This document shows positions 27,135 through 47,164 of a DNA stretch of 64,000 nt, in pieces. This stretch comes from a bacterium (GTDB taxonomy: Bacteria > UBP18 > UBA7526), in contig JAUWYL010000001.1 of assembly GCA_030615855.1 (NCBI GenBank), forward strand, positions 139,008 to 203,007, given 5' to 3'. The notes under the pieces are model-generated. The model was not told where the DNA came from. It did not search any database and saw only the letters and a program-made list of their open reading frames with translations. The position numbers and the translations under genes were made by a program. Numbering within the stretch: position 1 is the first letter of the stretch; the number at the start of each line of letters is the position of its first letter.

Positions 27135-27998
27135 ATGATGGGATTAGCCAAGGTCTATAGTAGTGCAGTACTGGGAATAGATGCCTATTCCGTAGAGGTG
27201 GAGGTAGATATTGCCAAAGGACTTCCCTCATTCAATACCGTGGGTCTCCCCGATGTGGCAGTGAAGGAGTCCAAAGACAGGGTGAAGGCAGCAATAAAGA
27301 ACTCAGACTTTAAATTCCCGACAAAGAGAATCACTGTCAACCTTGCTCCGGCGGATGTTAAGAAAGAAGGCTCTTTATTCGATCTACCCATTGCTTTGGG
27401 AATCTTAGCGGCCACTGGGCAGATTGAGAAGGCGGAATTCAAAAAATATGTTATCTTGGGAGAATTATCCCTGGATGGAGGGATACGCTCCATCCCTGGT
27501 GCCCTGCCCATTGCTCTGGCCGGTCAAAAAGAAGGGAGAGAGGGAATTATTCTTCCTCTGGATAATAGGGCAGAGGCAGCGGTAGTAAAGGGTCTAAATG
27601 TCTATCCTGTGGAGAACCTCTCCCAGACAGTAGATTTCTTAGCGGGAAAGACAGAGATTGAACCCTTCTCCTTAGATTTAGAAGGAGTCTTTGAGAGAGG
27701 GAGAGAATATAAGGTGGATTTTACAGATGTCAAGGGACAGGAACATGCCAAGCGGGCCCTGGAGGTGGCGGCAGCCGGAGGGCACAATGTAATCATGATC
27801 GGTCCTCCGGGCTCAGGGAAGACCATGCTTGCCCGGAGATTTCCTACCATTCTTCCTGATATGACTCTGGAAGAAGCCCTGGAGACAACAAAGATTCATT
27901 CCATCGCTGGCCTTGTGCCTCCTCAGACAGCACTCATCGCCACCCGCCCCTTCAGGAGCCCCCATCATACGGCATCAGATATTGCACTGTTACAATAG
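27135..27998 (+). pseudogene. comM: comM/yifB (Mg-chelatase-like competence ATPase), 5' portion truncated by element insertion
   Basis: N-terminus LAKVYSSAVLGIDAY.VEVEVD...GLPDVAVKESKDRV and the GPPGSGKT Walker A box are present. The ORF ends at ...RSPHHTASDIALLQ-stop, where intact ComM continues LIGGG...IPRPGE. Confidence 0.8.
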
Positions 27999-28002
27999 GG
28001 GG
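27994..28002. repeat. left junction copy of AATAGGGGG (candidate att core / flanking direct repeat)
   Basis: Identical 9-mer at 46477-46485. Splicing the flanks restores the comM reading frame D-I-A-L-I-G-G-G. Confidence 0.5.
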
Positions 28003-28055
28003 TAAGGTAGAAAAGGTAGAATATCGCATAGAAGCTACATTCTGATGGCGCTTAT
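27998..28055. repeat. island repeat unit copy 1 (GGGGTAAGGTAGAAAAGGTAGAATATCGCATAGAAGCTACATT), abutting the left junction
   Basis: Related copies at 34872-34966, 36246-36336 and 40932-41024. Confidence 0.6.
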
Positions 28056-28246
28056 TGTTACTATATGGTTAGTCAGCACAAAAACTTGACAAAATAGCAA
28101 AAGTGTATTATAATATAAATAACAAATAAAACTTGACAAAGTGTAAAAACCGTGATATGTTATAGGCCACGGGAGTAATTTCCAATAAAACAAGGATTGA
28201 AACTAGGAAAATCTACATTAATAATTATGGTAAGTAGAGGAAAAAC

Positions 28247-29104
28247 ATGAGGCGAGATATACTCTATTTTGGTGCCCCTGATAGTTTCACGCATATAGCT
28301 GCACTGAAAAGATTTGGTCCAAAGTATGACTATAAATCTTACTGGGCTATAGAAAAACTATTTGATGTTATTTTGGCAAATCCTACTAATATAATGGTAG
28401 TGCCTATTGAAAATAGTACTGGTGGAACAGTTCAACGTACTGCTGACGAATTAGTAAGTGATAAATTCGGAAATAGTGATTTGCGTATTCATGAACAACT
28501 GGAATCAAACATAGTTTTGAATTTAATAGGCCGCGAAAAGAATTTATCAAGTCTTAGAAAGATATACTCACATTCATATGCACTTAGATATTGTGAAGAC
28601 TGGTTAAAGGAGACTTTGCCAAACGCAGAAATGATTTTAGTAAATAGTACTTCGGAAGCGGCTATACGTGCAAAAAATAACCGAAAATCTGGTGCAATTA
28701 GTAGCACAAAAGCAGCAAAAACGTATAATTTGAAAATAATAAAAAGGAATATTAGCAAAAACAAAGCAGTTAATGTTACAAAGTTTTATGTTATAAAGAA
28801 AACAGGTAAGAATATTCTAAAACAAAGCAACAGGACTTCCGTTGCTTTTTCCTTGAAAGATAGAATTGGTGCCCTATGCGATGTCCTTGGGATATTGGCC
28901 AATAAAAAAATTAATTTAACTCGAATCATATCTTGTCTCAAATATGACAGTTCAAATAGGAATAAAAAATTAGATAAATATGCATTTCTTATAGAACTCG
29001 AAGGTAATATAGCCCAACAGAAAGTAAAAATAGCTCTTGATGAGTTACAAAGAGCTACCTTGGCTATGCATATTTTAGGTTCCTACCCCACAAGAAAACT
29101 TTAA
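28247..29104 (+). CDS. prephenate dehydratase-like protein (PDT domain + ACT domain), divergent
   Basis: YFGAPDSFTHIAALKRFG...VVPIENSTGGTV and IYSHSYALRYC are PDT-like. VAFSLKDRIGALCDVLGILANKKINLTRI is ACT-like. The TRF motif reads TKF and ESRP is not conserved. Very AT-rich. Confidence 0.55.
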   Translation: MRRDILYFGAPDSFTHIAALKRFGPKYDYKSYWAIEKLFDVILANPTNIMVVPIENSTGGTVQRTADELVSDKFGNSDLRIHEQLESNIVLNLIGREKNLSSLRKIYSHSYALRYCEDWLKETLPNAEMILVNSTSEAAIRAKNNRKSGAISSTKAAKTYNLKIIKRNISKNKAVNVTKFYVIKKTGKNILKQSNRTSVAFSLKDRIGALCDVLGILANKKINLTRIISCLKYDSSNRNKKLDKYAFLIELEGNIAQQKVKIALDELQRATLAMHILGSYPTRKL

Positions 29105-29325
29105 CTGAAAAACAATAATGTAGATGTGGTTACATCTTGACAGCTTTGGCAAGAATATAAATTTTCTTAAAGATATACCTCTCCAAAAATCAGAAGCCCC
29201 TACTCTTCAGAGGGTTCTTTTTATGCCAAAAATCTTTAATAATCCCCGCCAACTCAGGTGGGTTATTTTTTTGTTGAAATGAAATCTTTTTCAATTTACC
29301 GACGAAGAAGGCACAGAAAAAAGTC

Positions 29326-29354
29326 TTGACAAATCAAATATCGTAGTTTATACT
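29326..29354 (+). promoter_or_regulatory. sigma70-like promoter TTGACA-17-TATACT for the 204-aa orphan gene
   Basis: TTGACA at 29326-29331 and TATACT at 29349-29354, followed by SD AAGGAGG and ATG at 29376. Confidence 0.55.
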
Positions 29355-29375
29355 ATAATCAAAAGGAGGCAAAAG

Positions 29376-29990
29376 ATGGCTAAGTTGCCGTTTCCACAAT
29401 TTCTAAGTCGTTATGGAATCAAACTTCTCTTTACTGCTACTCCGGACGTGGTGCCGGGTACGATCATAGACAAGAGAAAGAAAGGGTTCTTCGGCATTGG
29501 AACCCTTAAACAAGTTCTGGGAGGAGGCCCGGCAAAGTGGGCGACCAAACTTCAACCGGGAAATTTGGTCTATGGCACAATAGAACGGGCTCTTAGTCTT
29601 AAAGGCAAAGCGAGCCTAAACGAGTTCGGTGTGGCAATCAGCGGTGGTCTCAGACGCGCACGGTCTGTTACTTTTGAAATCACGGGCGTCAAAGTTCGAA
29701 CATTCAAAACGCAGAGTATGATTACGATATCACCTGCACTCCACAAGCTTCGCAAGTCGAACAAGCAACTTTGGAAAATGGTAAATAATAATTGGATTGC
29801 GGATTATGTTTATTATGCCAGCGAAGCAACGGTGAAGTTCTTCGTTAACGGGGGAGTGAACCTCAAAGCGGATATCCAGAATCGTTTGAAAGTGTCGGGA
29901 GAGGCAGGGGTTCAATGGAAATCCAATCGCAGCTTCACGATAACAAATAACCAAGAAGTACCTTTCGGTTTTAGCGGCTGGAAAGTTTAA
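29376..29990 (+). CDS. hypothetical beta-rich protein, compositionally distinct (GC ~47%, CGN Arg codons)
   Basis: Own promoter and own terminator. Segments with alternating hydrophobic/polar residues (SVTFEITGVKVRTFK, ATVKFFVNGGVNLKAD) suggest amphipathic beta-hairpins. No family recognised. Confidence 0.4.
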   Translation: MAKLPFPQFLSRYGIKLLFTATPDVVPGTIIDKRKKGFFGIGTLKQVLGGGPAKWATKLQPGNLVYGTIERALSLKGKASLNEFGVAISGGLRRARSVTFEITGVKVRTFKTQSMITISPALHKLRKSNKQLWKMVNNNWIADYVYYASEATVKFFVNGGVNLKADIQNRLKVSGEAGVQWKSNRSFTITNNQEVPFGFSGWKV

Positions 29991-30100
29991 GGTTGGTTGC
30001 ACACCTTATCGTCATTCGTTTGTCGGTTACGGTTTTTGACGAACTACGTAACCCCTAAACGAAACGGGCGTCCTGACCGTATTGCGTATAACGAGCAATG

Positions 30101-30133
30101 CAGGAGCCTTTAATGGCTCCTCTTTTTTTGTTT
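30101..30133 (+). terminator. intrinsic terminator GGAGCC-TTTAAT-GGCTCC + T-run
   Basis: Perfect 6-bp stem followed by T9. Confidence 0.7.
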
Positions 30134-30237
30134 TAGAAGCAGGGCGAAGGAGAGATAAAAGGCTTGTTACACTTCCCTGAGTATGCTACAATGTAATTAA
30201 CATCACGAACGAAAATCCACCTGAGAACGGAGGACTA

Positions 30238-30918
30238 ATGACTCGAGTAATGAACAAGCAAAAAAAGATCGATGCATATAATTTTCCTTATACTTTTAAT
30301 CCTTATACTGGATGCCCCTATTGCTGTCACTACTGCTACACCATTAAATCTGCTCTCTGGAGTGCACGATTGAAAAACTGGGGAATAAAACCTAATATAG
30401 CAAAACCGAAACTTGGTGTAGTTCAGAAACTGCAGCGTGATTTACAGGACCTAAAGAATATACAAACCAGATATAAAGAAGTCCAGATAGGAAATTTCTT
30501 TGATCCCTATCCTCCAATAGAACCTAAATTAAAAATTACCAGACAATGTTTGGATGTATTTCGACAATATCCAGACTGGAAAGTCCATCTAGAAACCAAG
30601 TCTCCTCTCATCTTGAATGATATGGACATCATTAAGCAGATGCCGCGTTTTGAAGCGGAAATTACAATCACCACGCTCACACACGATAAGCAATTTGAGC
30701 CGAATGCTCCATCTACAAAAGAACGATTCAACTTAATCAAAGAGCTAAATAATAATGGAATATTTACAAGGGTTATGATTATGCCTATCCTGGAAGGATA
30801 TACCGATGTAAGGGCGATAATACAAAAAGCCACTAGATATGGAGCTAAATCATGGAAATCCAAAGAATTACATTACTTTACTATTAAAGATTTAAAAACT
30901 AGATATAATATTAAGTGA
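30238..30918 (+). CDS. small radical SAM protein, SplB/COG1533-like (DNA photolyase-like radical SAM family)
   Basis: N-terminal NPYTGCPYCCHYCY provides a CxxxCxxC cluster in the context typical of COG1533 proteins. At 226 aa it is short for the family. Confidence 0.5.
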   Translation: MTRVMNKQKKIDAYNFPYTFNPYTGCPYCCHYCYTIKSALWSARLKNWGIKPNIAKPKLGVVQKLQRDLQDLKNIQTRYKEVQIGNFFDPYPPIEPKLKITRQCLDVFRQYPDWKVHLETKSPLILNDMDIIKQMPRFEAEITITTLTHDKQFEPNAPSTKERFNLIKELNNNGIFTRVMIMPILEGYTDVRAIIQKATRYGAKSWKSKELHYFTIKDLKTRYNIK

Positions 30919-31017
30919 TAAGAGTGACGAAGAAAAAAAGCTAAAGGAAATTACACCTGAAATAAATAAAAAAAGCAGGAGCTATTTTGCCCCTGCTTTT
31001 TTATTGCCTGGATAAAT

Positions 31018-31326
31018 CTATTTGAAAATGATAGATACGATTTTAGAAAGCTTCTCTATATCTTTGGTTGATTTGTTCTTAAGAAGTTTGACTATTTCAT
31101 TTCTCGCTTGCTCTTTTTTATTCGTAAAAAGTTCACTGATATCAACCTTTAGACCTTTGGCTATTTTCTCAATATTCTTAAGAGAGGGATTACACTGCCC
31201 TCTTTCTATTAATCCAATATGAGTATAGTGTAAATTAGCCCTTTCCCCGAGTTCCTCCTGTGATAACTTTCGCTCCTTCCTTAAATCCCTTACCCTATTC
31301 CCGAAAATACGATATAGATTACTCAT
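31018..31326 (-). CDS. XRE-family HTH transcriptional regulator
   Basis: LSQEELGERANLHYTHIGLIERGQCNPSLKNIEKIAKGL. It is divergent from the lipoprotein operon. Confidence 0.7.
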   Translation of the reverse strand: MSNLYRIFGNRVRDLRKERKLSQEELGERANLHYTHIGLIERGQCNPSLKNIEKIAKGLKVDISELFTNKKEQARNEIVKLLKNKSTKDIEKLSKIVSIIFK

Positions 31327-31459
31327 TTTTCACCTTCCTTCAACATTATTTTAAAGGTAAAAGGCGAGAATAACCACAGAATAAATTATTTATTTTTCTT
31401 GATTTTAATGAAGATACATAGTATAATAAAAGTAATTGTATTATATGAGGAGGGACACA

Positions 31460-32998
31460 ATGAAAAAGACTATTCTTTTAATAACAGCGTTGATTCTAAT
31501 CTTCTCGTTATGCAGAACTGGCGACTCCTACGCAGTCAGCGATAAAAAATTGGCAAAACTTGCCAAGAAAGCAGGAGGGACAATTACTGAAGCACAAGAA
31601 TCTCTTACCCGATGGAAGACCGCTGACCTTATTGTACCTCCCGAAGCTGAGAAAATCCTGGAAAAAGCTCGTAAGGCCCATAAGGCGGGTAGCTACAAAG
31701 AGGCTCGTAAGCTGGCCGAAGAGTCTCTTAAAACTAGTAGCGATAAAGGAGCATGGAAACTTGCCCAGAAGACGAAAGAAATAATCACTCAGGCACAGGG
31801 CTACATTAACCTCTGGGAAAAGGAAGACCTTACTCCTCCACCCCAAGCCAAGGAAATTTTGAAGAAAGCCAAAGCAGCTTACCAGTCATACAATAATGAA
31901 GAGGCTTGCCAGCTCGCCAGCCAATCCCTTAAAATAACCACCGATGAAGGACTGAAAAAAGAGGCCCGGAAAGCAAGGGGGGCAATTACTGAAGCAGAAG
32001 CCAGTATCACCAGATGTGAATCTGCAGGATACACTGTTCCTCAAGCCAAAGAGATCCTGAGAAAAGCTCGCCAAGCAAATGAAGCGTGTAATTATAAAGA
32101 AGCACGTAAGTTAGCTAAAAACTCTCTCGAAGTAAGTAGCAAAAAAAAGATAGCCGGGCCCGCTGAAATTAAACCTAAAAAGGTAGAGAAAACAATTAAA
32201 AAGGTAGAAAAAAAGATCTCCAAGTGGGAATCTGAAATACAAATTCCTATTCCCCAAGCAAAAAAATTTATAGAAGAAGCTAACACGTTCTACCAGTCAG
32301 GTAATTATAAAGAGGCGCGCAATCTGGCCGGAAAAGCATATAATTCCTGGCAGCATGCGGTGATGGCAGAAAGGTATATCAAAGGAATGGAAGCCCACGC
32401 TACCAAATGGGAGTCTGCGGGCTACGATGTTCCCCTCACGAAGAAAATTCTTCGTGAGGCTCGCCAAGCACAAAAAGATGGAGAACAAGAAAAAGCCCAC
32501 CATTTAGGTGCAACAGCTGTCATTGTACTAAAACGAGAAGTAGCAGGAAGCTTTGAACCAAAAATAGAATTTCAGATTAATCCCCAGCATGGCTTGACCA
32601 AGTACAAAAAAATCGTTGTTTTAAAGATTGGTGATGCACCTCAAACCTTAGGTTCCGGGGAAATAGTGACAAACCTCGTATCCCATACTCTGGCAAAAAG
32701 AAAATATCAGATAGTGCAAAATAAAGAAGAGGCTGATGCCATCATCTCTGGATCCCTAACCCGGTATGAGGCCCAAGAATCTAGTTATCGCCTGCATTCA
32801 AAAGCCTTCATTTACAAATCCCGCGTAGAATCCTACTTCCTCGCCACCGTAGAGTTAACACTTAATATGAAAGATGCTAAAACGAACACTACTGTTTGGC
32901 AAGTTAAGGGTAAACAAGAGATGGCTTCTAAAGAAATAAAACCCGTAGCCCAATCAGTCATTAACGCCATCTTAGACCAGGTTCCGCAGAGTAAGTAA
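31460..32998 (+). CDS. lipoprotein with five tandem ~45-aa helical repeats and C-terminal LpoB/CsgG/TolB-N-like alpha/beta domain
   Basis: Signal peptide with lipobox FSLC. Repeats of the form ...TRWKTADLIVPPEAEKILEKARKAHKAGSYKEARKLAEESL. C-terminal YKKIVVLKIGDAPQ...IISGSLTRY. The longest ORF starts with TTG at 31436; SD plus ATG are at 31460. Confidence 0.5.
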   Translation: MKKTILLITALILIFSLCRTGDSYAVSDKKLAKLAKKAGGTITEAQESLTRWKTADLIVPPEAEKILEKARKAHKAGSYKEARKLAEESLKTSSDKGAWKLAQKTKEIITQAQGYINLWEKEDLTPPPQAKEILKKAKAAYQSYNNEEACQLASQSLKITTDEGLKKEARKARGAITEAEASITRCESAGYTVPQAKEILRKARQANEACNYKEARKLAKNSLEVSSKKKIAGPAEIKPKKVEKTIKKVEKKISKWESEIQIPIPQAKKFIEEANTFYQSGNYKEARNLAGKAYNSWQHAVMAERYIKGMEAHATKWESAGYDVPLTKKILREARQAQKDGEQEKAHHLGATAVIVLKREVAGSFEPKIEFQINPQHGLTKYKKIVVLKIGDAPQTLGSGEIVTNLVSHTLAKRKYQIVQNKEEADAIISGSLTRYEAQESSYRLHSKAFIYKSRVESYFLATVELTLNMKDAKTNTTVWQVKGKQEMASKEIKPVAQSVINAILDQVPQSK

Positions 32999-33014
32999 TA
33001 AGGAGGTAAGGGCA

Positions 33015-34034
33015 ATGAAAAAGGTTTCTTTTGTAATAGTAACGGGGCTAATGCTACTATTCTTGTTATATGGAACTAGCGAGTCCTGCACAGCTAACGC
33101 CCAGCAAGCATATCTAGAAATTACCGGAGCTCGGATGATGATTGCCAAGAAAGAATCTCAAGGGTATGCTGTTCCTGGAGCAAAGAAGATCCTGGAAAAA
33201 GCCCGACGGGCTTATCAAGACGGTAAATATAAAAAAACCCGAAAACTGGTAGAGAAAGCCCTTGACATACTACGCAAAGAAACAGCGCCTAAAAAATCTC
33301 TGGGCCGAAAGATAGCAGAAAAGACTATCACTGGCGATACTCACATAGGAATACTAACTCGAACACTTACTACCGGTTCTAAACATACTACGATAAAAGA
33401 CAAAATAGACGAGGTGAGAGTGAGGCATGAACCCTTAGTAGAAGTTCGCCAAGAAAAACCAGGGGTCAATCTGGCTGAATACCAAAAGATAGCTGTCTTA
33501 AAATTTAAGGACGCTCCTGGAACCCCGGGTTCGGGAAGCATAGTGGCTGATCTGGTAGCAAAAGAGTTAGCAGAAAGAAAGCATAATGTCGTTGGCCCAG
33601 AAGAGCTAGAGAGGGCAGCCAGGGAAGAGAAGGACAAAGAACCAGAAATAGGCAAAGAGGTCCCAGCCTTTACTATTAGCCGGTCCGATGTCGTTGTTTC
33701 GGGGAATTTACCGGATGAAATGGTTGATTCAATATTGGCCGAGATACAAGAAGACGCTAAGCGAAAAAAAGAACGGGTTGAGGACCTAAGCTACTCCCAG
33801 ATAAAGGAAGTGTTTGGCGCTGATGTTGTTATTACGGGAATTGTTTACAAGTATGCGTCTGCAGATACAGGAGGCGTAGTCAATGTAACGATTAAAATAA
33901 TTGACATTAAAGCTGACGACATTATCTGGGAGGGCAATGGAGTATACACTCCTTCGGAGAAAGATGCTTCTTCTATAACCCAGGCGGTTGTCAAGGCCAT
34001 TCTGGATGCAGTTTCACAGGAGGAGACTCAATAA
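33015..34034 (+). CDS. lipoprotein paralog (one helical repeat + LpoB/CsgG-like C-terminal domain)
   Basis: Signal peptide, ESQGYAVPGAKKILEKARRAYQDGKYKKTRKLVEKAL, and YQKIAVLKFKDAPGTPGSGSIVADLVA...ITGIVYKY. Confidence 0.5.
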   Translation: MKKVSFVIVTGLMLLFLLYGTSESCTANAQQAYLEITGARMMIAKKESQGYAVPGAKKILEKARRAYQDGKYKKTRKLVEKALDILRKETAPKKSLGRKIAEKTITGDTHIGILTRTLTTGSKHTTIKDKIDEVRVRHEPLVEVRQEKPGVNLAEYQKIAVLKFKDAPGTPGSGSIVADLVAKELAERKHNVVGPEELERAAREEKDKEPEIGKEVPAFTISRSDVVVSGNLPDEMVDSILAEIQEDAKRKKERVEDLSYSQIKEVFGADVVITGIVYKYASADTGGVVNVTIKIIDIKADDIIWEGNGVYTPSEKDASSITQAVVKAILDAVSQEETQ

Positions 34035-34146
34035 TAGAAACTCCCCTATAGTTTATCCCACCATCACGAACAAAGGTTCGGATAAAAAGAATTCAGGTCG
34101 CCTAAAAGAAAACGGCTAAATAAACTTTTGGAAGGAAGGAGGCAGT

Positions 34147-34863
34147 ATGAGAAAGATTCTTTTGTTAGTGGTTTGTTCGCTGGCTATCTTTTTAGTGGGA
34201 TGCCAAACTTTCGACCGCTGGTTAGCTCCTTCAAAACCAGTGGTGAAAATAGTAAAAATTACTAGTAATCCTAGTGGGGCTACAATTTATATAGACAAAA
34301 AGTACAACGGAACTATGAAATGTGGAGTTACCCCATTAACATTTTATCTAAAGTTCGTTGGGGAACTTCGTGGGGGAGAATTTACAAAACCTGGCGTTTG
34401 GCTCAAAGACCAAGGAGACCAAAAGAACTTTGGATGGCTCAAAAGAACACATCCTCAGGGGTATGAGTTTGAGGTTACGGTAAAAAAAATAAGATACAAA
34501 GAGGGGAAAATAAGAATAGACCTCGAACCACGCGACAAGACAGACTACCATATTGACCTAGAAGAAATAGAGACTATTTCTGTAGATGAGGTAGGTAAAC
34601 ATATAGGAGAGACGAAGATCGTAAGATGCCGGATAGTCTATACCGATAATGTAAGGGGGCGAGTATTTCTATTTACGGGCAAAGATTATAGGAAAGACTT
34701 TGCGGTAGAGATCTACTATCTGAGTAACTTTTCTTTCAACCCCGCTGCTTACTATCTGGGAAAGGAAATCGAGGTTCTGGGGCTTATACAAGGGGGCTGG
34801 CGCGAGGGCTTGCCCCCGTTTATCAGTGTTACCAGTCCCGACGAAATAAGAGTGATAGAGTAG
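34147..34863 (+). CDS. lipoprotein (lipobox LVGC), unknown function
   Basis: The MRKILLLVVCSLAIFLVGCQ signal is a lipoprotein signal. Confidence 0.45.
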   Translation: MRKILLLVVCSLAIFLVGCQTFDRWLAPSKPVVKIVKITSNPSGATIYIDKKYNGTMKCGVTPLTFYLKFVGELRGGEFTKPGVWLKDQGDQKNFGWLKRTHPQGYEFEVTVKKIRYKEGKIRIDLEPRDKTDYHIDLEEIETISVDEVGKHIGETKIVRCRIVYTDNVRGRVFLFTGKDYRKDFAVEIYYLSNFSFNPAAYYLGKEIEVLGLIQGGWREGLPPFISVTSPDEIRVIE

Positions 34864-34871
34864 AAAAGAAA

Positions 34872-34966
34872 AAGGGGGATTTTAGGAAAGAATAGAATAT
34901 CGGGTAGAAGTTATGTTATAATGTTCACCGCAGGAGTCTTAAAAGGCTCCTCTTTTTTTGTTTTAG
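34872..34966. repeat. island repeat unit copy 2 (includes terminator)
   Basis: aaagggggattttaggaaagaatagaatatcgggtagaagttatgttataatg...cgcaggagtcttaaaaggctcctcttttttt. Confidence 0.7.
34931..34962 (+). terminator. intrinsic terminator (AGGAGT-loop-GCTCCT + T-run)
   Basis: Hairpin plus T9. Identical module at 40989. Confidence 0.65.
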
Positions 34967-36245: not shown

Positions 36246-36336
36246 AAAAGGGTGAAAGGATAAAATATCGGGGGGAAGCTACATTATAATGCTTACCGCA
36301 GGAGTCATAAAGTGAATCCTGTCTTTTTGTTTTAAA
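36246..36336. repeat. island repeat unit copy 3 (diverged; includes terminator 36298-36334)
   Basis: aaagggtgaaaggataaaatatcggggggaagctacattataatg...cgcaggagtcataaagtgaatcctgtcttttt. Confidence 0.6.
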
Positions 36337-36424
36337 ACAGAGTAAAGGAGAGTAAAAAAATGCTTGCAATTTCCACCGAAATATGATAAGATTTTAAGTA
36401 GAAATTGAGGTAGAGAGAAAAATA

Positions 36425-38519: not shown

Positions 38520-38541
38520 CGAAAAATTCTGTACGATTTGT

Positions 38542-38673
38542 ATGCTACCGCTTTTGATTATGCTGGTAGTTGTGGAACACCCTGATATTGGGCTTTTCAA
38601 GACTATCCTCTGGGTGGTCTTTTTGGAGGCGGTTTGTTATGCTGGGCTGAAGTGGGGGTATAGAAAAAACTAA
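38542..38673 (+). CDS. 43-aa hydrophobic peptide (below ORF-track threshold)
   Basis: ATG at 38542. Single TM segment. Stop overlaps the next start (TAATG). Confidence 0.25.
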   Translation: MLPLLIMLVVVEHPDIGLFKTILWVVFLEAVCYAGLKWGYRKN

Positions 38674-38852
38674 TGACCAAAACCTACCTTGAAAAAATAT
38701 TAGCCCACTTGCGGATATGCCCAAATTGTCGCAAGGGCGTTATGTGGTATGATGTTATAGGAAACATTGAGAAGACAATGTTCCTTTTAGGTCTACTTCT
38801 TGGCGCAATATTATTTGTGCTGTATTTGATTGGGGCTTTTCAGAATATTTAG
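38673..38852 (+). CDS. 59-aa zinc-ribbon plus TM peptide starting MTKTYLEKI
   Basis: CPNCRKG motif and a C-terminal TM. The N-terminus MTKTYLEKI parallels MTKTYFEEI of the ORF at 40636. Confidence 0.3.
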   Translation: MTKTYLEKILAHLRICPNCRKGVMWYDVIGNIEKTMFLLGLLLGAILFVLYLIGAFQNI

Positions 38853-38891
38853 GCCGTATAAGACATGTTAGGGTAAAAGAATAAATTAAAA

Positions 38892-40511
38892 ATGACAAAA
38901 CACAAGAAGAAACGTTCACAGAAAAAAAGAAAAAATCAATTTACCCCCATCAACAAACACAAAAGAGATGGTTCAAAGCTGGCCTCAAAATTGTCTAGTC
39001 TGAATCTTCAAATGATAGATTGGGAAAGAGATTTAATTCCTGAGCATCTTTGGATAGATTTATTAGCTGAGGAATATAAAGATGTTCTTTGGTTTAAAAT
39101 TTATAACGAATTTCTAGATAAGTTAGAAGAATGCTTGACAGAACAACCCAAAACTCCACTGTTTGGCTTTATTTCAGATTTTGCCATTCCTTCAGATGAA
39201 GAAAAAGAAAAATTTATAAATAACAATAAAGATTTAATCTTTAATGCTTTTTTTAAACCTATTGGTAAAATTTTATCTTTATATCCAGAAAGTCCAGCAA
39301 GTTGGTTGGTATTAAAAGAGTGGCTAGATAGCGAAAAGGTTGATTTTGAAGAAGAATTAAATAAACTTTCTCAATCTGTATCTCGCCTGATGAAAGCAAA
39401 AGATCTATATGCAGGGCACATACGCGCCTTGCCTTTAAATAGGCTATTTAAGCACAATAAAATCTTTTTAGCACAGGGAAAAATGGATGAATTAGCTGAG
39501 CTACTTCCAAAATATCCTGAAAAATGTACTAAAGAAGAAAAATATCATGTTCAATCATTTGCCAGAACAACAATAAATCAGAATTTTATGACAGAAGAAA
39601 GATATAAGGATATGGTTTGGTCAAAATATTTTTGGCGACACAATTATGATTTAGTACCATGCGCTCCCCTTAATGAATCTCTTGAAGATGGCGACATTGA
39701 AATGCATGATGAAAAAGTAAAAGAAATACAAAAAAAGACCTGGGAAAATTCTATCAAGTTAATGAAATATCTTGATAAAATTGCAATGCAATATAAATAC
39801 GATTTATACAATCCTATGATAGATCAGATAAAACTAGGACTATTCTCAAGGATTGTTAGATTATATATTTCATTTGTATCAAATCCATTTTTATGGACTA
39901 GGGATCTTTCCTGCATAATGCTAAGATGCTTAGGTGAAACGACTATTATATTTCACTATTTAATACTTCATGGAACAAATGAAGATTTTAAAAACTTCCA
40001 TGACTATGCGGTTGGGAAGGAAAAATTATTAATGTTGCACATCCAGGACACCTACCAAGAGTTTCTTTCTTTAGAAGGTAAAGACACAGAAAAGATTGCC
40101 AAAGATATTGGTGGTGATTTTCACGCAGAAATAACAGCTGTAGAATTAAAGGGCTGGATAAAAAAAGATATCCGCACAATGGCTGATAACACAGGATTAC
40201 AGAAAATTTATAAAATCATAGTTGATCCGTCTAATGCAGATATTCATGGATCATGGTCCAGTATTCGTAAGTCAAATTTAGTAATTTGCCGTCAGATTCT
40301 ACATAGATTCCATAGAATACCGAAATTTTATGAGCCTCCTGTTTATTTAGGAGCTTTGGTAGCAGCAGATTCAATTTATTTAACGGCAAAAGAAATAGCC
40401 GTTCAAAAGTTAGGATTTCCTGAACCTGATGAAACTTTATCAGAAATATCAGAGGTGAAAAAGGCAATTCAAGAAAGATCGAAAGAAATAATTAAGAAAT
40501 TTAAACCCTAA
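38892..40511 (+). CDS. hypothetical 539-aa protein, AT-rich, basic N-terminus
   Basis: No recognisable motif. It follows the MTase pair. Confidence 0.4.
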   Translation: MTKHKKKRSQKKRKNQFTPINKHKRDGSKLASKLSSLNLQMIDWERDLIPEHLWIDLLAEEYKDVLWFKIYNEFLDKLEECLTEQPKTPLFGFISDFAIPSDEEKEKFINNNKDLIFNAFFKPIGKILSLYPESPASWLVLKEWLDSEKVDFEEELNKLSQSVSRLMKAKDLYAGHIRALPLNRLFKHNKIFLAQGKMDELAELLPKYPEKCTKEEKYHVQSFARTTINQNFMTEERYKDMVWSKYFWRHNYDLVPCAPLNESLEDGDIEMHDEKVKEIQKKTWENSIKLMKYLDKIAMQYKYDLYNPMIDQIKLGLFSRIVRLYISFVSNPFLWTRDLSCIMLRCLGETTIIFHYLILHGTNEDFKNFHDYAVGKEKLLMLHIQDTYQEFLSLEGKDTEKIAKDIGGDFHAEITAVELKGWIKKDIRTMADNTGLQKIYKIIVDPSNADIHGSWSSIRKSNLVICRQILHRFHRIPKFYEPPVYLGALVAADSIYLTAKEIAVQKLGFPEPDETLSEISEVKKAIQERSKEIIKKFKP

Positions 40512-40635
40512 CAAGGCATTGCAGCGGACAAAAAACGCAGTTTTTTGCCGCTGAATTTCAATGTTATGTAGAGCCTTCAGAAGAAGCAGAAAATCTTGGT
40601 TTTCGTCGTGCTTGGAGATGGCACGGGGAGAAATA

Positions 40636-40953
40636 ATGACTAAAACCTACTTTGAAGAAATCTCAACTCAAACTATGGAGCATATCAAGAAGGCCATATT
40701 AGAATACCGACAAGGCAAATATAGCGACCCTATGGTACTGCCTAACGCTATTGCCGCAATTCTGGAGACAGAGATAGAGGATCCGGAATATCAGAAATTT
40801 GCGGTAGAAAATTATAGTCAAATTGTCGGAATTGTCATTAATAAAAATCCAAAGTATTTAGCCATTAAGAGTAATATTGAAAGAGATTTTTACTTTCAGG
40901 TCGATGACGAAATAGTAGAGGCTTATCAAAAAGGAGTAAGGTTAAAAGGATAG
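40636..40953 (+). CDS. hypothetical small protein (start at SD-ATG MTKTYFEE; longest ORF from 40561)
   Basis: SD GGGGAG precedes the ATG at 40636. The C-terminus reads into repeat copy 4. Confidence 0.35.
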   Translation: MTKTYFEEISTQTMEHIKKAILEYRQGKYSDPMVLPNAIAAILETEIEDPEYQKFAVENYSQIVGIVINKNPKYLAIKSNIERDFYFQVDDEIVEAYQKGVRLKG

Positions 40954-41024
40954 AATATCGGGTAGAAGTTATGTTATAGCGCTTCTCGCAGGAGTCTTAA
41001 AAGGCTCCTCTTTTTTTGTTTTGG
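40932..41024. repeat. island repeat unit copy 4, closest to the attL-adjacent copy (includes terminator 40989-41022)
   Basis: aaaaaggagtaaggttaaaaggatagaatatcgggtagaagttatgttatagcg...cgcaggagtcttaaaaggctcctcttttttt. Confidence 0.7.
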
Positions 41025-41049
41025 AGCAAAATAAAGAAGGATAAAAGAG

Positions 41050-41172
41050 GCGATAAAAAATATTTTTCGGGAGCAAACCAAAAAAGGACTTGACTTTTTC
41101 TATAAAATATGGTATATTATAAGTAGTAGTGGTTGAGGGGTTAACTTTAATTTTCAGGAGGGAATAGACGGG
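41050..41172 (+). repeat. duplicated promoter/leader block, copy A (promoter TTGACT 41090-41095, TATATT 41113-41118)
   Basis: ~85% identical to 41489-41612 and includes a diverged copy of the first codons of the MerR-like gene. Confidence 0.7.
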
Positions 41173-41222
41173 GGGCAACTTCTTTAAAATCTGATGGGGC
41201 TGGATGAGATGGGAGATGAGAA

Positions 41223-41438
41223 ATGAAGAATCATGATCCTTGCCTGCGTTCTCTCTTCCAGTGCTTCCTTGAAAAACTGGGGAATATGGAAAAGGAAGAT
41301 TTCTTTGCCGTTGTTCGGGAACATTACCCCGGCGAGGAGGCCTTTGAAGAATTCATTAGCTACTTCAAAAGCGAAGAGGGAATTGACAGGTTTACAACCA
41401 TTCTGTCCGAAGAAGCAAGAAAAATAAGAATTGACTGA
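41223..41438 (+). CDS. small acidic protein (71 aa), likely born from partial duplication
   Basis: Driven by promoter copy A. Confidence 0.3.
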   Translation: MKNHDPCLRSLFQCFLEKLGNMEKEDFFAVVREHYPGEEAFEEFISYFKSEEGIDRFTTILSEEARKIRID

Positions 41439-41488
41439 AAAGAAAGTAGGGATGGGGAGGAAACCGGCCAAGAAGAGGAGAAGGGGGG

Positions 41489-41612
41489 CAATAAAAAATA
41501 TTTTTCGGGAGCAAACCAAAAAAGTACTTGACTTTTTCAGTAAGATATGGTATAATATAAAGTAAGGTGGTAGAAAGACTAACTTTAATCTTTCAGGAGG
41601 GAACAGATGGAG
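41489..41612 (+). promoter_or_regulatory. duplicated promoter/leader block, copy B (TTGACT 41528-41533, TATAAT 41551-41556) driving the MerR-like gene
   Basis: Consensus -35/-10 with 17-nt spacer. SD CAGGAGGGAACAG followed by ATG at 41607. Confidence 0.6.
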
Positions 41613-42401
41613 AATAACTTCTTTAAGATCGGTGAAGCTGTCCGTATCCTTAAAAAGGAGTATGAAAACTTGACAGCGAGCATGCTGAGATACTGGGACC
41701 AGAAAGGAGTCGTCGAGGCTTCAGAGAAGACAGAAGGGGGGCAGAGAGTATATAGAGTCGAGGATCTGGACTTAATCAGATATGCCAGGGAATTGTCAAT
41801 ATCCGGTTGTTCGCTCGGTATAATCAGAAAGGCAATCAAGGAAACTAAACTCGTTGCGAAAACTCCCAAATACTCTGCCGAATCATTCAGAAAGGCCCTT
41901 ATCAAACTAATCCGGGCTCTGCGAGCATTTAATAAACTCGAAAGACGACTAGAGGTACACAATCAGCAATCTCTTGGGGAACGATTTGAACCGATATACG
42001 ACAGAGAGGCACTGGTAAAATTATCAGGGGATCCGGCCTCTGAAAAGATTATAGATAAAGCAGAGAAATATAACTTAATATTTCCTGGAAAATCGGGTAA
42101 AAAGAAGAGATACAGCCGGGCTGACGAAGTGATCTTAAGATATTTGTTACTGATGGGAATATCTGAAATCAAAAAATTCAAAAACCTTTATGATATTATT
42201 AAGTACTTAGAAGAAGAGGTGGGCGTTACTGTAACAGTTAAGCCAGGAAAGAACTTTGCATATTTTCTGCTCCCTGGAGTTCGTTCACAATCCTTTACAG
42301 AGCGCATTGCGACACCTCAAGATCGTCTATTTCAGTTGCTGCACGATCATTACGATTATATTTACGGAGCTGTGAAGATGCTGGCGGAGCCCCATGTCTA
42401 A
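41607..42401 (+). CDS. MerR-family HTH regulator with long C-terminal domain (possible excision/regulatory factor of the element)
   Basis: N-terminal FKIGEAVRIL...SMLRYWDQKGVV...GQRVYRVEDLDLIRYAREL is a MerR-type HTH. Confidence 0.55.
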   Translation: MENNFFKIGEAVRILKKEYENLTASMLRYWDQKGVVEASEKTEGGQRVYRVEDLDLIRYARELSISGCSLGIIRKAIKETKLVAKTPKYSAESFRKALIKLIRALRAFNKLERRLEVHNQQSLGERFEPIYDREALVKLSGDPASEKIIDKAEKYNLIFPGKSGKKKRYSRADEVILRYLLLMGISEIKKFKNLYDIIKYLEEEVGVTVTVKPGKNFAYFLLPGVRSQSFTERIATPQDRLFQLLHDHYDYIYGAVKMLAEPHV

Positions 42402-42647
42402 AATAAGGCAACAAAAATACCGTGATTATGGGAGTAAATTTTTTCCCAATAACTCAATATCAATACTTCAGCCACTTTCACTATTTTTCTTAAGAAAAGT
42501 GGAAGGCCCGGTGAATGATGTCTGACATCCGGATTACCTCCGTTAAGTGCGTACCGACTCCTGATGCCAAGGAGCGTTTCAAAAAAATCGTCGTGATGCT
42601 GTTTTCGAAAGCAAAATATCAACAGGGCCGGAAGGAGGTGAGGAAAA

Positions 42648-42857
42648 ATGAAGGAAAAAGAACTAACTGATAAGGAGATAAGGAAGATACTTGAATATAA
42701 CCGAAGATTACTTAAAGAAATGCGTAAGGAGTTTTTAAGAAATCAAGAGGAGTATAGAGAAATAGCGATTCTGTTTAGTGAAGAAACGGAAATGATAGAA
42801 GCAAAGAAAAAAACTATAGAATCAATCAAAAAACTTATAAGTATGCTTCCCAAATAG
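42648..42857 (+). CDS. small coiled-coil protein (69 aa)
   Basis: KE-rich heptad-like sequence. Weak support. Confidence 0.25.
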   Translation: MKEKELTDKEIRKILEYNRRLLKEMRKEFLRNQEEYREIAILFSEETEMIEAKKKTIESIKKLISMLPK

Positions 42858-42993
42858 ATAAAAAAATAGAGAGGAAACTAGAGAAACCGGGAAAGAAGGA
42901 GGAAAAAAGACACCGTCCGAAAGTTTAAGGACCATTAAAAAACAGGGAATCAAAACTGAAACTCCGATTCCTAACCTGTCAAGGAGGCGAAAT

Positions 42994-43980
42994 ATGGAGA
43001 GGTGTAAGATGAAACGTTTACCCAGTGTATCAGTCAAGCTCGCTAGTATAATCTGTATAGCAGGTTTCATCCTTCTGTGGTATGTTTTAATTGCGGCCCA
43101 CACTACAGGACTTGTTAAGAGTTGTTTTATCATCTATAGCATAGGTTTGATGGTGGTTACTTCTTATTGGAGCTATAGAATTGCAGAATGGGTCCGAATA
43201 AGGAATACGCAATCTGTAAAAAACATATTTGCTTTTTTCTTCGGCAAATTATTTAGCCCTCGCGCACTTAAAATATTCGAGAAGATAAGGACTGAGCACC
43301 AGGATACCATCGACAAAATCCGGGGTTCTCTATTCCGTGAAGCTTCTCCGGAAGACGAACTTGTTATATCCTTGATAAATCGTCTCTTATCTGCTCTTTT
43401 TGATTTACCCGATTTTAAATACGGACAGAAGAGTCTTTTTTCCTACTCTTTACTGGTAGCCGTTCACTCCTTAGAAGATTTTGAAACGAGAGTCTGGCGG
43501 ATGGAGACCCCGGAAGGAACGCGCGACGGCGTTAAAACAATTATGATGAGGGATAAATGGAAGTTAGGAGTTTGTATCTCTGCCCTGGCGAGTAACCTAG
43601 GCAGGGTTTACGAAGCGGAAGTATCTAGCCGTAAAGCATCTGCAGAAGTTTGGAACCCAGGGCGTGAAGAACTTTATACCTTCGCCCTTCGCCATAAGGA
43701 GTATGGTATTAAGTTGAAACCTACTCAAGAAAATTTCCACAAAATCCCCACCAATTATCTCCTTCATTATATTGTGAATAGCGATGTGGCTGAAGAATTG
43801 GGAGAAGAAGTGTTCTTTGAGGTGCTGGATTCCCTGTCTCCTGCTCCTAATTCCAAGAATCGTATCTTCCCTGTGGTGGAAGAAGGAAACAAGCTAACTG
43901 TTGAAGAAATCTCTAAATCCAAAGAGGCAGTGAGAGGAGGTCGGTATTGTCCACCAGAGAAGAAAACAAAAGAAAACTAA
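42994..43980 (+). CDS. membrane protein (two N-terminal TM helices) with a cytoplasmic domain
   Basis: Hydrophobic segments SIICIAGFILLWYVLIAA and IIYSIGLMVVTSYW. Confidence 0.4.
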   Translation: MERCKMKRLPSVSVKLASIICIAGFILLWYVLIAAHTTGLVKSCFIIYSIGLMVVTSYWSYRIAEWVRIRNTQSVKNIFAFFFGKLFSPRALKIFEKIRTEHQDTIDKIRGSLFREASPEDELVISLINRLLSALFDLPDFKYGQKSLFSYSLLVAVHSLEDFETRVWRMETPEGTRDGVKTIMMRDKWKLGVCISALASNLGRVYEAEVSSRKASAEVWNPGREELYTFALRHKEYGIKLKPTQENFHKIPTNYLLHYIVNSDVAEELGEEVFFEVLDSLSPAPNSKNRIFPVVEEGNKLTVEEISKSKEAVRGGRYCPPEKKTKEN

Positions 43981-44879
43981 TTCAGGCAGTTGCAAAACGT
44001 GAATCTTTAATGCGTGTGCTTTTTGTTCTAGACTGGTTTGGTTGGGCTACCATCAGACAAGCAGCAGGATACCTGCATCTGTCAACGCGACGGGTGAACT
44101 GCATCTTAGACGAATTATTTGAATCCAGGATGGTGAAGTACAAACGGACACACGCTCTCTTCGGAAAAGGACGACGATATTGGTATCTGCTCCGTAAAGG
44201 AATATCTGTCCTTAGGGTTAGAGACCCTCATGTTTTTTCCTCGCCAATCCGCAGGGGCCAAATCCCGGATACCCCCTTTAGCCATCATCATGGTGTTGTA
44301 GATGCCATTATTGAATTACGGGAAAAAGGATTCAAATGCACTTCTTGCCGTCACTCTTTATGGCCTAGTTTAATGCAGCAATATGGCAAGCAATACCATA
44401 ATATACCCGATTTCTGGGTAAAGAAGGAAAAAGAAACCTTTATAGCCGCCGAGGTGGAGCGAACGGTCCGTGGTAAGAGGTATTATGCCCCTAAAATGAA
44501 TAACCAGCAAAAAAGATATTTTGAACGGTTTATCCCCACTCTCTACATTCCCATGACTAAAAAAGTAGAAAAAAATCTTCATAAGATAATCAAACAGATA
44601 AAACAAACTGGTGAATACACTATGAAGAAGGGAAAGCCGGATCACCTGAAGACTATGGCAGAATTTGACTATAGATACCGGAGTGGGGAAAAAGTAGGCG
44701 CCGTGGATGGCGGAATCGGATTTATGTTCAGCAATACAGAAATGACTAAATTTACTGCCCCGATTGCTTCAACCGGTGAGTGGATCGAGAGTCCTTTTAC
44801 AGAGTTGGCGGATAAGGCTAAAAAGATATCTGAGACGCTCTTCAAGAGAGAGGAGGGCGAAGTTCTGAAAAGATTTTGA
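43947..44879 (+). CDS. winged-helix protein, possibly replication-relaxation-like
   Basis: N-terminal wHTH-like LMRVLFVLDWFGWATIRQAAGYLHLSTRRVNCILDEL. Family assignment is tentative. Confidence 0.35.
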   Translation: MSTREENKRKLIQAVAKRESLMRVLFVLDWFGWATIRQAAGYLHLSTRRVNCILDELFESRMVKYKRTHALFGKGRRYWYLLRKGISVLRVRDPHVFSSPIRRGQIPDTPFSHHHGVVDAIIELREKGFKCTSCRHSLWPSLMQQYGKQYHNIPDFWVKKEKETFIAAEVERTVRGKRYYAPKMNNQQKRYFERFIPTLYIPMTKKVEKNLHKIIKQIKQTGEYTMKKGKPDHLKTMAEFDYRYRSGEKVGAVDGGIGFMFSNTEMTKFTAPIASTGEWIESPFTELADKAKKISETLFKREEGEVLKRF

Positions 44880-44943
44880 AAAGTCCTTGTCTTTTTCGTA
44901 GAGAGGGTTTATAATTAATAAAACTAGAAGTCAGGAGGTCAAA

Positions 44944-46548
44944 ATGAAGTGTGCTATTTATATCCGGGTATCAACTACTGAACAGGCAGAAAAAGGAACG
45001 AGTTTAAAAACCCAAGAAGAAGCCTTGAAGAAGTATTGCCAAGAGAACAATTATCAGATTTATAACATCTACAAAGATGATGGTTATAGTGGTGGCACTC
45101 TTGACAGGCCAGGGATTCAAAGGCTGTTAGAAGATATTAAGGAAGGCAAATTTCAGGCTGTTATAGTTTATAAGACAGACCGCTTGAGCAGATCTATTAG
45201 AAACATAGTTAATCTCGTGCTTGGTGATTTTGAAAAATATGGCATAATCTTTAAGTCTATTACTGAGCCTTATGATACTTCTATGCCTGCCGGCAGGATG
45301 TTCTTTGTTCAATTAAGTAGTTTCGCAGAATTTGAAAGAGAGACGATCAAAGAAAGAAGTAAAGAAGGCAAGTTAAGAAGGACCTTAGAAGGCAAATATA
45401 TGCTGAGCGTTCCACCTTTTGGCTATAGAAAAGATAAAAACAAAAGGCTAATTATAGACCGAGAAGAAAAGAAAGTTTATCTCCAAATAGTAAGATGGTG
45501 TTTAGATGGTGTAGGTAGTAATACTATTGCCCGGAGGCTCAATGAGCGAAACATCCCAACTAAAAAGGCTAAACTCTATAATAAACCATATAGATGGAAG
45601 CAGGGAACAGTCCTTGATTTTTTAAAACACCCTCGTTATAAAGGAGAGTTTATCTATAAAGGACATAAAGTAAAGATTCCAGCTCTGATTACAGAGGGGC
45701 GGTGGGAGCAAGTCCAGAGGCAATTAGAGAGCAACTATAACAATGCTTTAAGACATACAAGGCGGTTTTATCTTTTGAGGAATCTCTTATACTGCAAGAA
45801 ATGTGGAAGAAGGCTCTTTGGTTTGATAAAGCCCAAGAAGGGGATGAGACTCTATTGTTGTCTCAGTAAAAGGCCAGACCCAGAACCCAGATTTTGTGGC
45901 CTCAAAAATGTTAATATAGATAAAACGAATATTATTGTCTGGAATAAAATCAAAGAGATAGTCAAGAACTCTCAAAAATTAAAAGAGGCCATAGAGGAGC
46001 AAAAGGGTAGCCATTATGTTAAAGGTTACATATCCGAAATAGAGGTAAAGAATATTAACCAAATTATTCAAAGCAAAGAGAGGGAAATTGATAGGATTTT
46101 AGAACTTTATAGTCGGTCAAAAGCATTATCTATCGCAGAGTTAGATAGAAAAGTAGATGGCATTAAAAAACAAAAAGATAACTTAGTGCAGGAAAGAGAG
46201 AAAATATCAGAGGAAATAAATCGGGCCAGACAGGCAAAAGAGACTTTAAAACATCTTGAAAACTATATGGCAAAGATAAGCAAAAGAATAGATAATTTTA
46301 CTAATGAAGAAAAGTATGAATTTATCCATTTGATTGTAAGTAAGATTATAGTTGATTATGACAGAGATTTAAGGTATCATAGTATAGAGATAGAGGGAGC
46401 AATACCAATATTTAGAGAGGAAGACAGGATTCCTAAATATACCCCCCTATTACAACAAGACAATAGATATTTCCCTAATAGGGGGAGGGAGAATCCCCCG
46501 TCCAGGCGAGGTGAGCCTCTCTCACCATGGGGTTTTATTCTTAGATGA
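44944..46548 (+). CDS. large serine recombinase (integrase) of the element
   Basis: The YIRVSTTEQ catalytic Ser motif and VYKTDRLSR resolvase motifs, a recombinase domain, and a Cys-rich zinc ribbon CKKCGRRL...CC. The 3' end reads through the right junction into host sequence. Confidence 0.85.
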
Positions 46549-47164
46549 ACTACCAGAGTTTAAGAGGAACGTCTTAGAAGTCCTGCGCCAGCCTTTAGAG
46601 GATGGGGGGGTCACCATATCAAGGGCGGTCACTTCTTTATCCTATCCCGCACGGTTCATGCTCACTGCGGCCATGAACCCCTGTCCCTGTGGCTTCTTCG
46701 GTGATCCAGTAAATGAGTGCACCTGTACTCCTCCCAAGATCCAGAAGTATAGATCGAGGATATCCGGACCTTTGCTTGACAGGATCGATCTCCACTTAGA
46801 GGTTCCCCGGGTGAAGTATAAGGAGCTCGCCTCTCAGGAGACGGGAGAGAGATCAGAGGTGATAAGGAAGAGGGTGAACAAGGCAAGGATCATTCAGCAG
46901 AAGAGGTTCCAAGGCCGGAAGGGAATCTTCTGCAATGCCCATATGGAGGCCAAAGAGATTAAGGAATTCTGTAAGATTGGTGAAGAGTCTCAGGATCTCA
47001 TTAAGTTGGCCATTACCCAGTTAGGTCTATCTGCCCGGGCTTACGATAGGATACTGAAAGTCTCCCGAACCATCGCAGATTTAGAGGAAAAACCTGATAT
47101 CGAACCGGCCCATGTCTCAGAGGCCATTGGCTATCGGAGCCTGGACCGCACTCTCTGGATGTGA
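46460..47164 (+). pseudogene. comM: comM/yifB 3' portion (resumes at [32 protein letters not shown])
   Basis: The in-frame translation upstream of the GTG at 46511 continues the ComM consensus [23 protein letters not shown]. The C-terminus reads [15 protein letters not shown]. Confidence 0.8.
46477..46485. repeat. right junction copy of AATAGGGGG
   Basis: See 27994-28002. Confidence 0.5.

Follow-up and report, generated by a model that had tools for sequence, protein, structure and literature searches.

The competence gene comM (yifB) lies in two pieces in the stretch of bacterial DNA analyzed here (64,000 nucleotides, hereafter the window: positions 139,008 to 203,007 of contig JAUWYL010000001.1, assembly GCA_030615855.1), which raises the question of what came between the two pieces, by means of which enzyme, and at which bases. 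The intervening DNA is an island of 18,488 bp (27980–46467, forward strand), which very probably entered the conserved HHT-x-S-D-x-x-L-I-G-G-G stretch of comM by recombination between the attachment sites attP and attB, carried out by the island's own large serine recombinase (LSR).

An island inserted in comM

The island has a GC content of 38.9%, compared with 45.1% for its flanks. To its left, the 5′ part of comM (27135–27979, forward strand) is host-derived as far as the central dinucleotide of the junction; the open reading frame (ORF) to which it belongs (27135–27998) continues into element DNA, terminates with ...HHTASDIALLQ-stop at 27998, and encodes a Pfam ChlI domain (1.5e-50) followed by positions 1–91 of the 207-position Mg_chelatase profile. 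To its right, the ORF at 46511–47164 encodes Mg_chelatase positions 103–206 and Mg_chelatase_C, and its in-frame upstream extension from 46466, which completes the 3′ part of comM (46466–47164, forward strand), supplies the missing positions of the profile. Rejoining the two halves gave one continuous, gap-free ComM of 513 amino acids that aligned without gaps over the junction with 16 orthologs from many phyla. A protein search recovered six full-length ComM proteins (512–513 amino acids) that were 93–95% identical to the rejoined protein, and relatives of ComM carry the NCBI name YifB family.

We fetched two loci with intact comM, L090 (NCBI assembly GCA_030616365.1) and L091 (a JGI metagenome). 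Both have the gene order of the window (RNase HII, UPF0102, comM, SLT transglycosylase), are 81–90% identical to it at the nucleotide level (94–95% for the ComM proteins), and lack the island. The blastn alignments of these loci with the window ran through the 5′ part of comM, stopped at 27985 or 27988, and restarted at 46466, with 8–11 bases overlapping. The insertion into comM is genuine and can be cleanly reconstructed. An initial annotation, made from the letters of the window, had proposed that a serine-recombinase element splits comM, and the boundaries and the empty sites of L090 and L091 bear this out. Its description of an AT-rich interior ending in an LSR that reads across the right junction is likewise correct. 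Its placement of the 5′ ORF end at 27998 and of the rest of the ComM motif upstream of 46511 agrees with the Mg_chelatase matches. It had also named two outcomes that would speak against an insertion, namely related genomes that are all occupied and comM halves that do not assemble into one ORF when spliced and compared with the uninterrupted genes of relatives; the intact comM of collinear relatives and the gap-free rejoined ORF answer both in favor of insertion. We found no tRNA gene in the window, and tRNA targeting is irrelevant to this locus.

The neighborhood has a second variable spot, at 20011–21737, where collinearity with both L090 and L091 is lost. The window carries there a gene for a 482-amino-acid SNase-domain protein (20111–21559), followed by a second SNase-like gene (21756–22541), and L090 has an acid-phosphatase-like gene in that place.

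Attachment sites and the position of exchange

Common to both junctions are AGATATT (27977–27983 and 46465–46471) and the 9-bp sequence AATAGGGGG (starting at 27994 and 46477), the latter preceded by GATATT plus 10 nt on the left and GATATT plus 5 nt on the right, with a reverse-complement copy at 46443. The left site, attL (27959–28003, forward strand), comprises a B half-site (27959–27978), a central GA (27978–27979) and a P′ half-site (27979–28003), and the right site, attR (46442–46486, forward strand), comprises a P half-site (46442–46466), a central GA (46466–46467) and a B′ half-site (46467–46486). Numbered outward from the centre, the half-sites read A-TATTGCACTG-TTAC-AATAGGGGG (P′), C-TATTGTCTTG-TTGT-AATAGGGGG (P), A-TATTTCCCT-AATAGGGGG (B′) and C-TGATGCCGT-ATGATGGGG (B). 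The 9-bp motif therefore occupies positions 16–24 in both attP arms (27994–28002 in attL and, as the reverse complement CCCCCTATT, 46443–46451 in attR) and positions 11–19 in the comM B′ arm (46477–46485), and the B arm has the related ATGATGGGG. In the window, as in the homologous loci L081, L085, L087 and L088 (described below), every P-type arm is a B′-type arm lengthened by 5 nt and has AAT at positions 16–18.

Joining the element-side sequences at the GA within AGATATT (CCCCCTATTACAACAAGACAATA-GA-TATTGCACTGTTACAATAGGGGG) rebuilt an attP of ...TATTACAACAAGACAATA-GA-TATTGCACTGTTACAATAGGGGG..., which is a near-palindrome with 18/24 dyad matches per arm. The same dyad score calculated over the 64-kb window had a maximum of 17 (mean 6.0, sd 2.2), and no position equaled the 18/24 of attP. 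The best axis of the rebuilt attB, ...CATACGGCATCA-GA-TATTTCCCTAATAGGGGG..., also falls on this GA, with a score of 11/24. The locus thus displays the signature of serine-integrase sites: a pseudo-palindromic attP of ~50 bp, a shorter attB, a non-palindromic central dinucleotide, and a motif for the zinc-ribbon domain (ZD) that in attB is 5 bp closer to the centre. In the Listeria A118-type (LI) integrase, the zinc-ribbon domain reads a 9-bp motif at positions 16–24 of the 25-bp attP half-site, and in attB the same motif is shifted 5 bp inward, to positions 11–19 (PMC3783163). By analogy with that enzyme, AATAGGGGG is most likely a distal motif bound by the zinc-ribbon domain and not the crossover, and the two junctions place it at differing distances from the axis, as expected of such a motif and not of a core. 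AATAGGGGG alone is not rare, with further copies at 61593 and 61973; because the attP dyad score lies above that of every position in the window, it is the geometry, and not the occurrence of the 9-mer, that exceeds chance.

We considered the copies at 61593 and 61973 as secondary att sites and rejected them, as both are I-G-G codons in housekeeping ORFs. The first lies in dxr (a 380-amino-acid ORF, within ARIGG) and the second in an adjacent 372-amino-acid membrane-protein ORF (within LIGGY), and both reflect the genome's use of ATA-GGG-GG for Ile-Gly-Gly.

These sites suggest how the island would have entered. The LSR would bind two half-sites on each partner site, exchange 2 bp at the GA of an Asp codon inside the shared AGATATT, and by conservative attP × attB recombination leave the attL and attR now seen at the ends of the island. 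An exchange at this GA is, in our judgment, probable, and we infer the exact cut position from the reconstruction. ComM would be truncated inside its AAA+ domain, which would be expected to lower transformation-dependent recombination in the host and to leave it with a loss-of-competence phenotype. Serine integrases carry out attP × attB recombination without host factors, and excision requires a directionality factor.

Several observations weigh against this account. When JGI metagenome contigs were scanned for exact matches to the rebuilt attB, with 5 positions left free, 0 were found, and a scan of the same contigs for the B arm alone also gave 0 matches, implying that the source strain is absent from the scanned JGI collection; a scan of viral contigs for the rebuilt attP likewise returned 0 matches. 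These scans therefore yielded no same-strain empty site and no free attP or circular form, and the nearest relatives with an empty site are only 81–90% identical in DNA. We identified no recombination directionality factor. In addition, an exchange at GA restores D-I-S-L, whereas six of six close relatives read D-I-A-L, and the residue in question is Gly or Ala in 119/119 homologs with the motif and never Ser. The codon at this residue is GCC in the relatives, TCC in the attR copy and GCA in the attL copy, each one change away. If the exchange took place at GA, the Ser codon could represent a change of B′ after insertion, a polymorphism or a consensus error in the metagenome-assembled genome; otherwise the cut lies elsewhere. 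Relatives' attB variants include GCC and ATTGGAGG.

The Ser residue speaks for a different placement with the same element and enzyme: both junctions also share a CT, in the Leu codon and 9 bp rightward of GA, and the exchange could have occurred there. The native sequence would then be GAT ATT GCA CTA, encoding the D-I-A-L of the relatives with only a synonymous difference (GCA for GCC), and TCC would be element-derived; this placement conserves length too, as the junctions are in register across AGATATTnCnCT. We nevertheless consider it unlikely, because the symmetry axes of both rebuilt sites remain at GA whichever crossover is assumed, and serine recombinases cleave a dimer-bound site in its centre (PMC3783163). 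An alternative crossover that we tested, one base off the CT, gave dyad scores of only 6/24 for attP and 4/24 for attB. Moreover, the same inner sequence, TATTGTCTTG, recurs in the P arm, an arm that cannot derive from the host, indicating that the attP arms mimic this stretch independently.

The initial annotation had instead placed the exchange within AATAGGGGG as a 9-bp core, or joined the flanks as GCACTG-ATAGGGGG. It was right that AATAGGGGG and GATATT recur at both junctions, and AATAGGGGG is the longest identity common to them; its reading of AATAGGGGG as the crossover repeat does not survive the differing axis distances (16–24 versus 11–19). A crossover within AATAGGGGG would give an attB of GCACTGTTACAATAGGGGGAGGG, which contains an in-frame TAG and is 5 nt longer than the comM of relatives. 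The GCACTG-ATAGGGGG splice does yield D-I-A-L-I-G-G-G, as in relatives, but it joins non-identical DNA, which conservative site-specific recombination cannot do. Both versions are extremely improbable, and we retain the exchange at GA.

The recombinase and its relatives

The LSR gene (44944–46548, forward strand) encodes 534 amino acids and is the last gene of the island, its non-conserved 3′ tail overlapping the P half-site and crossing attR. The protein matches the Pfam families Resolvase (2.8e-41), Recombinase (1.3e-16) and Zn_ribbon_recom (1.8e-6), as well as a PHROG integrase family (1.1e-116). The best NCBIfam match is to CcrB (1.1e-45), at 156 bits against a cutoff of 900, and on that score we rejected the LSR as a Ccr ortholog. 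The catalytic domain aligns to the structure of the TP901-1 integrase (5.6e-31) with the Ser nucleophile in place, the LSR motif RVSTTEQ being aligned with RVSTTNQ. In the family alignment, at least 90% of members have R8 and S10, all have D79, R80 and R83, and the zinc ligands C284, C287, C306 and C318 are invariant. Residues ~343–486 give weak coiled-coil-type matches (JetC/MukB-like, E 5e-4), an indirect hint of the coiled-coil insertion that serine integrases have in the zinc-ribbon domain. Family conservation ends near residue 490, and the ~40 codons at the end of the gene extend over the P half-site, such that the excised form is predicted to have 529 amino acids in place of the 534 of the integrated form. 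Judged by these residues and domains, the enzyme looks intact and functional, and it may be active today.

The nearest relative of the LSR in a 5.8-billion-protein collection is 55% identical, ~35 proteins at 35–55% identity make up its neighborhood, and the LSR itself is known from one contig only. We fetched genomic contexts for six homologs (42–55% identity) and looked for comM in them by tblastn with ComM. In five of the six, the recombinase gene adjoins a comM fragment broken at residues 279–292, and both orientations occur: L081 and L087 match the window in orientation, with the recombinase gene next to the 3′ part of comM, and in L082/L083, L085/L086 and L088/L089 the gene converges on the adjoining 5′ part, which means that the element is inverted. 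The element-side arms of these homologs are P-type (TG at positions 10–11, a spacer of 4–5 nt, and AAT at 16–18), and the comM side is B-type. The sibling elements share only the LSR with the island of the window, and their cargo is unrelated. The sixth context (L084, encoding the homolog P0006) has a different neighbor, and its phage-like contig includes a tail tape-measure gene; when examined for an intact attP it showed no convincing dyad, and it appears to use another target. A profile search with the LSR clade over 2.9 million viral contigs found no close relative, the best matches being 36–40% identical, mostly partial, and none of them beside comM.

A bolder reading of these contexts is that the LSR represents a deep and almost unsampled clade, spread over uncultured Elusimicrobia-type and other environmental bacteria. 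The recombinases of this clade would recognize comM codons under protein constraint, whichever way round the element lies, and their att sites would be regular enough for half-site specificity to be deduced from sequence. The element could then be a reversible competence switch in its host, excising to restore comM, and not a dead-end insertion. We regard this reading as quite unlikely.

Cargo, element class and known systems

At the left end of the island, a consensus sigma-70 promoter (TTGACA-N17-TATAAT, 28086–28114, forward strand) reads into the island, toward a low-GC gene for a prephenate dehydratase with an ACT domain (28247–29104, forward strand; Pfam PDT 1.3e-42; NCBIfam prephenate dehydratase 8.2e-57, below the curated cutoff). 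This promoter is held by the first of two promoter-like repeats (AAAACTTGACAAA...) at 28081–28164, just inside the left end. We rejected a CRISPR array at 28167–28203: the Rfam CRISPR-DR7 match there did not reach the gathering score, and the region consists of two promoter-like repeats.

The next gene (29376–29990, forward strand) encodes a gasdermin-fold protein of 204 amino acids, matching PADLOC bGSDM (5.7e-10), whose AlphaFold2 model (pLDDT 91.4) had bacterial gasdermins as its top Foldseek matches (7N51, 7N52 and 7N50, E 6e-8 to 2.6e-5). Members of this family (homolog loci L092–L096) are mostly 204–206 amino acids long, ~40–60 shorter than the solved bacterial gasdermins. In the window no protease gene is adjacent, and in two homolog contexts that we examined the gene is solitary among housekeeping genes, next to SusC/SusD or lipid-metabolism genes. 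There follow genes for a radical SAM protein (PA0069 / mobile-pair-B-like, 30238–30918, forward strand), an XRE-type helix-turn-helix (HTH) regulator (31018–31326; Pfam HTH_3 4e-15; PADLOC control protein 3.3e-20), which is the sole annotated island gene on the minus strand, and three secreted proteins or lipoproteins (DUF4136/DUF4398 repeats, GNA1162-like and PEGA; 31436–34863, forward strand).

An ORF-poor stretch of ~1.25–1.4 kb (34990–36240) with 46% GC has no ORF longer than 102 amino acids. It gave no Rfam match, a fold z-score of -0.18 and no plasmid match, and we rejected a structured RNA there; the stretch is probably decayed coding DNA between two copies of a ~125-nt repeat. To its right lie a type II restriction-modification pair (36425–38519, forward strand), consisting of an N4/N6 methyltransferase and a CfrBI-like endonuclease (Pfam N6_N4_Mtase 3.6e-44 and RE_CfrBI 7e-44; PADLOC MTase_II 6.5e-117 and REase_II 9.1e-17), and a DUF5677 / DitA-like candidate defense protein (38892–40511, forward strand; Pfam DUF5677 8.1e-14; PADLOC DitA 1e-31). 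A MerR-family HTH protein (41607–42401, forward strand; Pfam MerR_1 3.3e-10) could possibly act as a regulator or as a directionality factor. Two direct repeats of ~155 nt (41038–41191 and 41476–41630; 81–83% identity) lie 438 nt apart, the second reaching into the MerR-like gene, whose start codon is at 41607. Situated upstream of the putative mobilization module, these copies may stem from duplication of a 5′ region, or they may be a candidate regulatory or origin-of-transfer (oriT)-like element.

The putative mobilization module (42994–44879, forward strand) consists of a divergent MobH-family relaxase homolog (42994–43980) and a MobC-like replication-relaxation protein (43947–44879), with NCBIfam matches to MobH at 1.6e-12 and to MobC_subf at 2e-6. 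Homologs of the 328-amino-acid MobH-like ORF grade up to a full MobH score (P0295 scores 213.5 bits, above the cutoff of 200), and the relaxase assignment rests on this transitive evidence. The lineage is very rare, with 17 detectable proteins (16 relatives) among 1.8 billion cluster representatives. Neither match in the island reaches its curated cutoff; at 47 bits, the MobH-like ORF covers only profile positions 61–222, and in place of the first ~60 profile positions it has a hydrophobic, membrane-like N-terminal region of ~95 residues, such that its catalytic N terminus may be missing. Searches of PDB sequences with the MobH-like, MobC-like and gasdermin-like ORFs returned nothing significant. 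The insertion is a non-phage genomic island, probably an integrative mobilizable element with defense (anti-phage) cargo, and for the mobilizable part of this description we put the chances at about even. A helper conjugative system would then mobilize it, which the sub-cutoff MobH-like and MobC-like matches make uncertain.

Its phage-like features would also be expected of a decayed prophage or phage satellite that is not mobilizable: the LSR matches a PHROG integrase family (at 1e-116), the radical SAM, HTH and MerR-like ORFs match PHROGs, and the LSR homolog P0006 comes from a phage-like contig. Nevertheless, a PHROGs scan of 10 ORFs found only integrase, regulator and unknown-function families and no capsid, terminase, portal, tail or lysis family, and a Pfam scan of all 16 ORFs found no phage structural domain. 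With no close LSR relative in the viral contigs and a MobH/MobC-like module present, a phage origin is improbable. The island ORFs also have no transposase domains in Pfam or NCBIfam, and the junctions show no target duplication, only an imperfect shared core. Somewhat more plausible, though still unlikely, is a composite assembled by successive insertion or accretion of modules, with the ~125-nt repeats as relics of former left ends. The copies of this island-enriched repeat (34871–34993, 36238–36362 and 40928–41051, with partial copies at 30087–30160 and 27997–28047) sit after gene blocks and split the island into five segments of 35.6–46.3% GC; the leftmost copy begins at the outer edge of the P′ half-site, and two internal copies start with a G-rich stretch resembling the ZD motif. 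However, no internal copy has the core or the inner half-site, the conserved part of the repeat is the rho-independent terminator hairpin in which it ends, GCAGGAGTCTTAAAAGGCTCCTCTTTTTTTG, and a further copy lies outside the island, in the chromosome between the two SNase-like genes (21565–21738), which shows that the repeat can occur independently of the att system. We did not find the repeat in L090 or L091; it may be a terminator module resembling a miniature inverted-repeat transposable element (MITE) or a relic of module accretion. Finally, the contig derives from an uncultured organism and its LSR is known from that contig only, as might be the case for an assembly chimera in a metagenome-assembled genome, but a canonical attP and comM are each divided between the two junctions, the halves complementing one another in exact base register, which a chimera would not give, and this explanation is barely credible. 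We therefore continue to regard the locus as an island inserted by its own recombinase.

The initial annotation had treated the use of this site by a serine integrase as not yet known, which the literature contradicts. Of the LSRs predicted to be site-specific, 12.4% target homologs of Mg-chelatase/ComM, and competence genes are enriched among LSR targets (Durrant et al. 2022, PMC10083194). Those elements have the same enzyme class and the same target gene family as the island, many diverged LSRs converging on one conserved coding site; the match is at the level of the gene family, and the LSR of the window is at most 55% identical to anything in the 5.8-billion-protein collection and comes from an uncultured lineage. 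The large serine recombinase of phage WO, sr1WO, integrates into the magnesium-chelatase gene of Wolbachia (Bordenstein and Bordenstein 2022, PMC9203015), and there, too, the halves of the target gene flank the element; phage WO is a tailed phage with structural modules, which the island lacks, the hosts are unrelated, and the likeness is at the gene level. The Listeria A118/LI integrase likewise interrupts a competence gene (Rutherford et al. 2013, PMC3783163; PMC3556126), and its att geometry is identical to that of the island (25-bp attP half-sites, with the 9-bp ZD motif at 16–24 and, in attB, at 11–19), but its target is comK and not comM, it belongs to a phage and not an island, and its motif has another sequence.

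Among non-phage elements, comM is a hot spot in Acinetobacter for Tn7-like AbaR islands and other defense-carrying elements (PMC11472951). The AbaR/AbGRI islands of Acinetobacter baumannii resemble the island in interrupting comM in the same Mg-chelatase domain region, in their defense or resistance cargo and in reduced transformability, which for the island is predicted (PMC11472951), but they are Tn7-like transposons (with TnsA/B/C–TniA/B/C transposition genes) that make target-site duplications of 5 bp, whereas the island has no transposition genes and conservative LSR att junctions. The staphylococcal cassette chromosome (SCC) elements (CcrAB/CcrC) are also non-phage cargo islands moved by LSRs into the coding end of a conserved gene, and differ in their target (rlmH/orfX), in often having two recombinases and in having no relaxase-like module. 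The island is a cleanly resolved natural example of a mobile element that would disable the transformation machinery of its host, in keeping with the intragenomic conflict already known to surround comM, and its sites illustrate the geometry of serine integrases with unusual tidiness. Its new, divergent serine integrase, with a predicted 50-bp attP and 40-bp attB, is a possible tool for genome engineering. Target, enzyme class and site geometry have all been described before, and the island opens no new biological question: comM is the best-documented target of the LSR class, and the island is a further example.

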